The translations under genes were made by a program, and so were the position numbers. A DNA stretch of 64,000 nt from Patescibacteria group bacterium (GTDB taxonomy: Bacteria; Patescibacteriota; Patescibacteriia; Magasanikbacterales; UBA922). The notes beneath the pieces are model-generated. The model saw nothing but the letters and a program-made list of their open reading frames with translations, searched no databases and was not told the DNA's origin. Positions 46,101 through 46,856 of the stretch are shown piece by piece; the first letter of the stretch is position 1; each line of letters begins with the position of its first letter. The stretch lies in contig JBAZZL010000003.1 of assembly GCA_041658785.1 (NCBI GenBank), forward strand, positions 639 to 64,638. The letters are read 5' to 3'.

Positions 46101-46856
46101 TCAGGTTAATAATCCGGACCGGTTATTTCGATCCCGCCACCATTTGGCTGGGTTTTGGCGGATATAATAACGGATATTATTTAACGATTTTTCATTTCTG
46201 ACAATATGATCGTAAAATCGCGGTTGCCATGCAAAATAATTAAATTTGGTTATTTGATTGATTTGTTTGGTGGTCGTTGATTTGAAACCGCGGATGATTG
46301 ATGCCAAATTGTTTCGTTGCGGTCCGAATTTGTTTTGGTATGGTTGGCGTGGTGGCGATGGTTGATTTGATTGCGGCGGTTGGTATGGTGGCGGTTCGTG
46401 TAGAGGCGCATTGCAATGCGCCTCTACACGAACACGACCATTGCAATGCGCCTCTACACGAACCGTCGCCACACAATTGTCCGTCCAAACATCCAAAATA
46501 TATTTACCGTTCATTTCAATAATTTCACCAACAACAATAATTACATGGATATGGTTTGGCATAATTATCCATTCATCCAATTTTACATTTGGTCGCATTT
46601 TTTCGGTTTTTAATAATTCATTTTTTACAATTTCACCATTTTTGTTCAACACCATTTTTCCATTAATGATATGGCCAAAATAACAAATTCTGTTTTGCGT
46701 GCAAATGGTTATAAAATAATAACCCGGTTGCGAATAATCGTAACCGGATAATCGAGTGGTTTGGGTTCGGTATTTATTACGAAATAGATCCTCCTTCATA
46801 TTGTTATTTATTTTCCCAACAATTTTTTGTACCCGCCCTCGCCATGTCTTATCCAA
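46101..46856 (-). CDS. IS200-like / REP-associated tyrosine transposase (RAYT) carrying an in-frame palindromic insertion
   Basis: Y1 transposase motifs (GYYFITICTQNR, IMPNHIHVIIV, ...IRYYIRQNP). The 38-bp perfect palindrome at 46395-46432 encodes RVEAHCNAPLHE-type repeats. Confidence 0.75.
   Translation of the reverse strand: MDKTWRGRVQKIVGKINNNMKEDLFRNKYRTQTTRLSGYDYSQPGYYFITICTQNRICYFGHIINGKMVLNKNGEIVKNELLKTEKMRPNVKLDEWIIMPNHIHVIIVVGEIIEMNGKYILDVWTDNCVATVRVEAHCNGRVRVEAHCNAPLHEPPPYQPPQSNQPSPPRQPYQNKFGPQRNNLASIIRGFKSTTTKQINQITKFNYFAWQPRFYDHIVRNEKSLNNIRYYIRQNPAKWWRDRNNRSGLLT
46395..46462. repeat. 38-bp perfect palindrome TTCGTGTAGAGGCGCATTGC|GCAATGCGCCTCTACACGAA plus a 30-bp partial second copy, inside the RAYT ORF
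   Basis: Read directly; GC-rich in an AT-rich gene. Confidence 0.8.

Follow-up and report, generated by a model that had tools for sequence, protein, structure and literature searches.

A Patescibacteria transposase gene, probably a subclass 2.4 TnpA-REP, that carries a double-foot REP in frame in its own coding sequence

Results

A RAYT gene on the minus strand

The DNA analysed here, which we call the window, is a stretch of 64,000 nucleotides from a Patescibacteria group metagenome-assembled genome (MAG). The window contains a single HuH gene. The list of open reading frames gives this gene as one minus-strand ORF, 46101..46856, with a TTG start and a length of 251 aa. The homologues and an identical database protein, P0001 ('MAG: transposase, Patescibacteria group bacterium', 232 aa), favour the ATG at 46799 as the start, so that the product has 232 aa. 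The search with this protein found 3341 homologues. The gene and its conserved parts are as follows.

46101..46799, minus strand: tnpA-REP / RAYT gene, probably of the TnpA-Y1 subclass 2.4 type (ORF list, identity to P0001, Pfam Y1_Tnp, 4ER8)
46545..46562, minus strand: HuH motif MPNHIH, residues 80-85 (alignment of 50 homologues; aligns to LPEHMH of 4ER8)
46332..46529, minus strand: variable linker from the HuH strand to the next conserved helix, about residues 91-156, rich in Pro and Gln, which holds the REP copies (gapped alignment block of variable length)
46197..46229, minus strand: WQPRFYDHIVR, residues 191-201 (aligns to 4ER8 residues 94-104, the part that contacts the GTAG guide)
46149..46166, minus strand: Tyr motif YIRQNP, residues 212-217, with the catalytic Tyr212 (aligns to YIYINP of 4ER8)

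A sequence-only reading of this DNA had called the product a Y1 transposase of the RAYT type, and our results bear this out. Pfam PF01797 (Y1_Tnp) matches the C-terminal half only, with 27.1 bits against a gathering cutoff of 23. The E. coli TnpA-REP with bound REP (4ER8) is the only solved relative found by sequence, and it is also the top fold match of the AlphaFold model, above the IS608 and ISDra2 transposases. The NCBIfam equivalog model NF047646 (REP_Tyr_transpos) matches in two stretches with the linker between them, and its score of 62.2 bits is below the curated cutoff of 80. Thus, we do not claim equivalog membership in REP_Tyr_transpos.

In the alignment of 50 homologues (41-57% identity), residues M80, P81, N82, H83 and H85 of the HuH motif are invariant, as are W191, Q192, Y212 and N216, while R194, D197, R201 and P217 are at least 90% conserved. 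W191 and Q192 align to W94 and Q95 of 4ER8. Together with E100, H101 and R104, these two residues are the GTAG contacts of E. coli TnpA-REP (PMC6006769). The HuH motif, W191/Q192, D197, H198, R201 and Y212 are all kept in the window gene, and its ORF is uninterrupted and full length. Judged by its sequence, the RAYT gene is intact.

A double-foot palindrome within the coding sequence

The palindrome and its surroundings have the following parts.

46394-46433: perfect 40-nt palindrome without a spacer, GTTCGTGTAGAGGCGCATTG/CAATGCGCCTCTACACGAAC
46400-46427: 28-nt 'double foot' REP core GTAGAGGCGCATTGCAATGCGCCTCTAC, GTAG...CTAC
46439..46463: partial second copy, 25 nt identical to 46409-46433 (loop and one arm), with a period of 30 nt from start to start
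46383-46418 / 46439-46474: outer imperfect inverted repeat with 36-nt arms, 92% complementary, which encloses both copies

The palindrome at 46394-46433 is the longest perfect palindrome of the window and continues perfectly for 6 nt past each foot. It had been described as a 38-bp perfect GC-rich palindrome. It is indeed perfect, and its G+C content of 55% is above the 45% of the window, but its length is 40 nt. The description of a partial second copy holds, as this is an exact 25-nt repeat. The element was also rightly called REP-like, since it has a GTAG foot on both strands; a hairpin with a GT[AG]G foot is a trait of the REP family.

The 40-nt palindrome codes for V123-P136 (VRVEAHCNAPLHEP), and the partial copy codes for V113-N120 and the first base of the G121 codon. 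The partial copy adds VRVEAHCNGR before VRVEAHCNAPLHE, and both copies together make up residues 113-136. Both keep the frame and fall after the HuH motif (M80-H85) and before the Tyr motif (Y212-P217), two motifs that align to those of 4ER8. Because 28 nt is not divisible by three, insertion of the core alone would break the frame, whereas a period of 30 nt would keep it.

In the outer repeat, the partner of the far arm is the partial copy, and the two also pair in the minimum-energy fold of the single-stranded DNA (-39.2 kcal/mol, z = -8.7 for the region). Because the outer arms pair in this way, the region looks like a longer palindrome in which a tandem duplication took place. Its sequence is consistent with a partial duplication of 30 nt that kept the frame.

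Further copies of the palindrome, for which the sequence-only reading had proposed a search, are not present in the window. At up to 3 mismatches there is no second match to the REP core in the 64 kb, and none of 100 shuffles gave a match. A chance origin of the palindrome is ruled out. There are no other double-foot palindromes in the window and no GTAG-footed hairpins within 1 kb on either side of the gene. The window, in which no REP flanks the gene and the core occurs at one locus only, gives no sign of a REPtron arrangement or of a dispersed REP family. A scan of 44000-49000 with Rfam gave only sub-threshold matches to eukaryotic miRNA precursors. These are generic matches to long hairpins, and no known RNA family lies over the region.

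Neighbouring genes and other repeats in the window

A TrpR-family helix-turn-helix protein of 90 aa (46808-47080, minus strand; Pfam Trp_repressor, 2.4e-21) is encoded directly upstream of the RAYT gene. This gene is on the same strand as the RAYT gene and ends in a stop codon 8 nt before the RAYT start codon. Because of this short gap, the two genes are probably co-transcribed. Farther upstream is a large membrane protein (47131-48504, minus strand), which we read from its sequence as Wzy_C / O-antigen-ligase-like. At the locus of the closest homologue (L092, Magasanikbacteria), a called Wzy_C gene at 8638-10023 is also upstream of the RAYT gene, and no TrpR-family gene lies between the two. 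A match between the two upstream genes would hint that the RAYT gene was inherited vertically at the site.

The window also contains two palindromic repeat families of other kinds. One is a MITE-like compound-palindrome repeat of about 140-160 nt with two near-identical copies, at 31489-31621 and 44016-44157, the latter just downstream of hisD. Its terminal inverted repeats of 27-32 nt (93-94% complementary) surround two hairpins, one perfect (CCCCTTCTCCTT-G-AAGGAGAAGGGG) and the other small. The left half is also present near 3690-3745, in a third copy that is truncated. This repeat is without the GTAG foot and is unrelated to the REP of the RAYT gene, and Rfam gave only sub-threshold miRNA-like matches to it. 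The other family comprises a perfect 30-nt palindrome, CCCGTTTGTCATTCCGGAATGACAAACGGG, at 20106-20135, whose 20-nt core TTGTCATTCCGGAATGACAA is present again at 27236-27255, 7 kb away.

The REP-coded residues in the linker loop

In the alignment of 50 homologues, the part from the HuH motif to the NKFGPQ block is very variable in length. The spacing from HuH to W is 54-150 aa among the homologues and 111 aa in the window protein, in which 127 aa separate H85 from Y212. The AF2 model has a mean pLDDT of 80.8 and values of at least 90 through the core. Over residues 101-160 the pLDDT is 44-71, and it falls below 50 for residues 121-132, inside the REP-coded stretch. In the predicted model, the loop that leads from the HuH strand to the next helix is at the surface, variable and of low confidence, and it holds the REP-coded residues. 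The model agrees with that of Quentin et al. (PMC6006769).

The same palindrome in homologous genes

The segment had been taken for an unusual insertion, a view that depended on whether homologous RAYTs natively contain it. They do, and an internal REP is moreover a published hallmark of subclass 2.4. At the position of the palindrome, the consensus peptide of the 50 homologues is VETHCNASL. A REP-type peptide is present at the site in 86 of 116 homologous proteins by a strict pattern, and degenerate versions are found in several others. In P0002 (57% identity, Magasanikbacteria), which is the closest relative, this position is occupied by GTAGAGACGCATTGCAATGCGTCTCTAC. For the DNA we compared 81 loci, i.e., the window and 80 homologous loci that were fetched from Gammaproteobacteria, Bacteroidota, Chloroflexota, Cyanobacteria, Patescibacteria, Desulfobacterota and others. 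A palindrome of 27-29 nt, GT[AG]G...C[TC]AC, lies inside the HuH-to-W linker at 44 of these loci, in 45 copies of which 34 are perfect. In 78 linkers with a total of 19 kb there are 44 copies, against none in 200 shuffles. The segment is therefore native to the family, and the idea of a one-off insertion is given up.

The same evidence bears on the suggestion that a recent, self-inflicted REP insertion marks the inactivation or decay of the transposase. The 30-nt partial duplication could be taken as local instability, and the lack of flanking REPs and the NCBIfam score under the cutoff point in the same direction. Against this, the ORF runs without interruption over its full length with every invariant residue of the family, including the catalytic and GTAG-contact residues, and P0002 has its REP at the same place. 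We therefore consider decay of the window gene very improbable. Self-targeting, which had been put forward beside it, holds only in the weak sense of the literature that REPs are inserted in their own transposase gene.

Decay does occur within the RAYT family, but not in the window gene. Broken homologous RAYTs with an internal REP exist, for example at L007 5371-5800, where a stop replaces the conserved W of WQ. At L008 13755-14100, a second RAYT copy is frame-disrupted.

The internal copies are read in two frames. Counted from the GTAG foot, 29 copies read GTA GAG (VE..), 16 read AGA GAC (RD..) and none is in the TAG frame. The peptide of the other frame, RRDAxxxVST, accounts for 16 of the 45 DNA copies and 19 of the 86 proteins. 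Since two reading frames are in use, it is the DNA that is conserved and not the peptide; the third frame is unused because it would read a TAG stop. In the outer arms GTAG is invariant and is followed by AGAC or GGGC, while the centre varies by locus but stays self-complementary. A covariation count on the 31 distinct REP cores is descriptive only, since the set was picked for palindromy and its high paired percentage is circular.

Alternatively, the conserved element could be the peptide VExHCNAxL, with its His and Cys serving for example in a metal or protein contact, and the palindrome could be a by-product. The VETHCNASL consensus in the protein alignment would agree with this. However, a third of the copies are in the other frame, the centre of the palindrome varies freely and remains self-complementary, the same 28-mer is found in intergenic DNA (see below), and the region is predicted with low confidence. 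This is the least credible of the readings that we considered, and the use of two reading frames led us to drop it.

Internal and flanking REPs can also be compared among the 81 loci, for which up to 10 kb was examined on each side. Double-foot palindromes lie within 400 nt of the gene ends at 18 loci and farther off at 11, and the internal copy is the only one at 31. Thus, among the loci examined, the internal REP is steadier than the flanking REPs. Internal and flanking copies are often identical within a locus.

These numbers raise the question of whether the internal REP is a maintained functional element, either a protected master copy that seeds REPs or a cis site for self-control through the enzyme or an mRNA hairpin. 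Several observations would suit such a role. No other REP of the locus is as constant as the internal copy (44 loci against 18 with a flanking copy, and 31 with the internal copy alone), 34 of the 45 copies are perfect despite a hypervariable linker, and the REP peptide is nearly the whole loop in the shortest homologues (P0017, P0043, P0068). In addition, the internal copy is the only one in the 64 kb of the window. On the other hand, 37 of the 81 loci are without an internal REP by the strict criterion and their genes are still intact. The distance from the palindrome to HuH ranges from 33 to 271 nt across loci, and some genes contain two or more copies. Perfect palindromy could also be explained by recent insertion or by conversion from other genomic copies. 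On balance, we regard a maintained element as unlikely, though clearly less so than decay or a peptide motif.

Identical copies of the 28-mer on other contigs

The exact 28-mer of the window is present on 11 other metagenome contigs. One copy is within a RAYT gene and another directly 3' of one, in the ORF that follows; further copies are in intergenic DNA or in frame in unrelated ORFs. From such varied contexts we conclude that the 28-mer acts as a mobile REP elsewhere. The copies that are in frame in other ORFs include the following.

L084 1000-1027: identical 28-mer in frame in a 606-aa membrane protein
L085 11284-11311: identical 28-mer in frame in a 367-aa ORF
L087 2423-2450: identical 28-mer in frame in a 392-aa ORF, read as DprA-like, directly after a RAYT gene
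L090 466-493: identical 28-mer in frame in a 311-aa ORF, read as glycosyltransferase-like

In the unrelated ORFs the 28-mer reads as VEAHCNAPLQ or CRGALQCAST. Most of the dispersed copies have a T before GTAG and an A after CTAC. This gives a unit of 30 nt, which equals the period of the duplication in the window and is divisible by three.

Probable pairing of the enzyme with its REP

E. coli TnpA-REP acts on single-stranded DNA as a monomer. It binds the REP hairpin, recognizes the bases of the 5' GTAG specifically, and cleaves at CT dinucleotides in Mn2+ (PMC3479197). GTAG is likewise required by the enzymes of perfect-palindrome REPs from S. maltophilia and Marinomonas, and these enzymes and their REPs have co-evolved (PMC8266576). 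In the literature that we searched, no biochemical test of any subclass 2.4 enzyme is apparent.

Among the homologous loci, the stem pair next to the foot tracks the motif that follows WQ. With xRFxD there are 24 AG and 3 GG stems, and with xNYxE there are 0 AG and 14 GG (Fisher 2e-8, a value that takes no account of shared ancestry). The kept GTAG contacts, this tracking of stem type and motif, and the frequent identity of internal with flanking copies would all suit a cognate pair of enzyme and REP. By analogy with the characterized enzymes, we infer that the window enzyme processes the window REP.

We suggest the following mechanism. The enzyme would bind the hairpin and its GTAG on single-stranded DNA, as in the TnpA-REPs of E. 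coli, S. maltophilia and Marinomonas. It would then cut and rejoin nearby through Tyr212 and a metal bound by HuH. Because the cutting and rejoining would take place near the REP, REPs would build up in and around their own transposase gene, as in a REPtron. A copy inside the gene may persist as a tolerated passenger because the loop tolerates any peptide, and only the two frames without a TAG stop would survive. The REP in the window would later have gained its 30-nt in-frame partial tandem duplication. We thus favour a tolerated passenger over a required element for the internal copy.

Discussion

The TnpA-Y1 proteins have been classified by Quentin, Siguier, Chandler and Fichant (2018, BMC Genomics 19:475, PMC6006769). 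Their subclass 2.4, which equals RAYT group 4 of Bertels et al. 2017, has the motifs NH[IFV]H, WQ and YIxNNP and a median length of 194 aa (PMC6006769). Its beta3-alphaC insertion is variable in length and sequence, so that the distance from HuH to Y is enlarged (median 88 aa), and its hosts are Cyanobacteria, Bacteroidetes and various phyla (PMC6006769). Long 'double foot' REPs (5' GT[AG]G ... C[TC]AC 3') are found in frame within tnpA-REP of this subclass, between HuH and Y (PMC6006769). The HuH motif of the window protein, N82-H83-I84-H85, agrees with NH[IFV]H, and the WQ of the subclass is present. Its YIRQNP has the class 2 signature Y---NP and is one residue off YIxNNP, with Q215 in place of N. 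A search with the window protein gave homologues in Cyanobacteria, Bacteroidota and many more phyla, in line with the published host range of the subclass. We therefore consider it likely that the gene is a TnpA-REP of subclass 2.4 and that the palindrome is the subclass's own 'double foot' REP, located in frame in the loop. The REP within the gene is a published hallmark of TnpA-Y1 subclass 2.4 and thus already known; the member from a Patescibacteria MAG is new.

For annotation, we recommend the name subclass 2.4 TnpA-REP (RAYT group 4) with a double-foot REP inside the gene, in place of a decaying IS200 transposase. The use of two frames, the constancy of the internal copy relative to flanking REPs and the tracking of stem type and motif bear on whether selection acts on the internal copy. 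These observations are incremental and ignore phylogeny. It is also conceivable, at rather long odds, that the internal REP is a protected master copy of the REP family or a site of autoregulation, and that selection keeps it palindromic in the one gene whose loss would end the system. If this were true, the gene and its internal REP would form a minimal self-contained REP-RAYT unit in small genomes like that of the Patescibacteria MAG.

Comparison with known systems

The closest known system is subclass 2.4 itself. In common with it, the window gene has NHIH, WQ and Y---NP, a long variable insertion that joins the HuH strand to the next helix, and a GTAG...CTAC double-foot REP in frame between HuH and Y in an uninterrupted ORF. 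The single copy in the window and the scattered occurrence across phyla are also shared. The differences are the host, which is a Patescibacteria MAG, and the Y motif, which is YIRQNP and not YIxNNP. Furthermore, the window gene is without a flanking REP or a second REP in the 64 kb, and its REP has an extra 30-nt partial duplication on one arm and is perfect for 6 nt past each foot.

The E. coli TnpA-REP with its REPtron (subclass 2.2, RAYT group 2; 4ER8) is the best match by both sequence and fold. The two enzymes share HuH with a single catalytic Tyr and the WQ..[DE]H..R contacts to GTAG, and both REPs have a 5' GTAG foot. However, the E. coli REPs are imperfect, bulged hairpins with a single foot, which are extragenic, flank the gene and number hundreds of copies, whereas the REP of the window is a perfect palindrome with two feet inside the gene. 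The loop from HuH to the helix is also short in the E. coli enzyme, which has a C-terminal tail.

GTAG REPs that are in frame in many other genes were catalogued by Di Nocera et al. 2013 (PMC3733652). Like the window element, these intragenic GTAG/CGTC REPs and the Rickettsia palindromic elements are small palindromes in frame in coding genes, where they are tolerated in loops. They differ in being scattered over unrelated genes and sites, while the window REP has its cognate transposase as host gene and a position that is family-wide.

The TnpA enzymes of IS200/IS605 (subclass 1.1) share the HuH/Y1 fold and the recognition of hairpins on single strands. They differ in their motifs, DH[VI]H, W[TS] and Y[IV]ENQ (Y---Q), in having subterminal hairpins outside the gene, in often having tnpB, and in being multicopy. 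We rejected membership in this group, as the window has NHIH, WQ, YIRQNP and a single HuH gene, with none of these differing traits.
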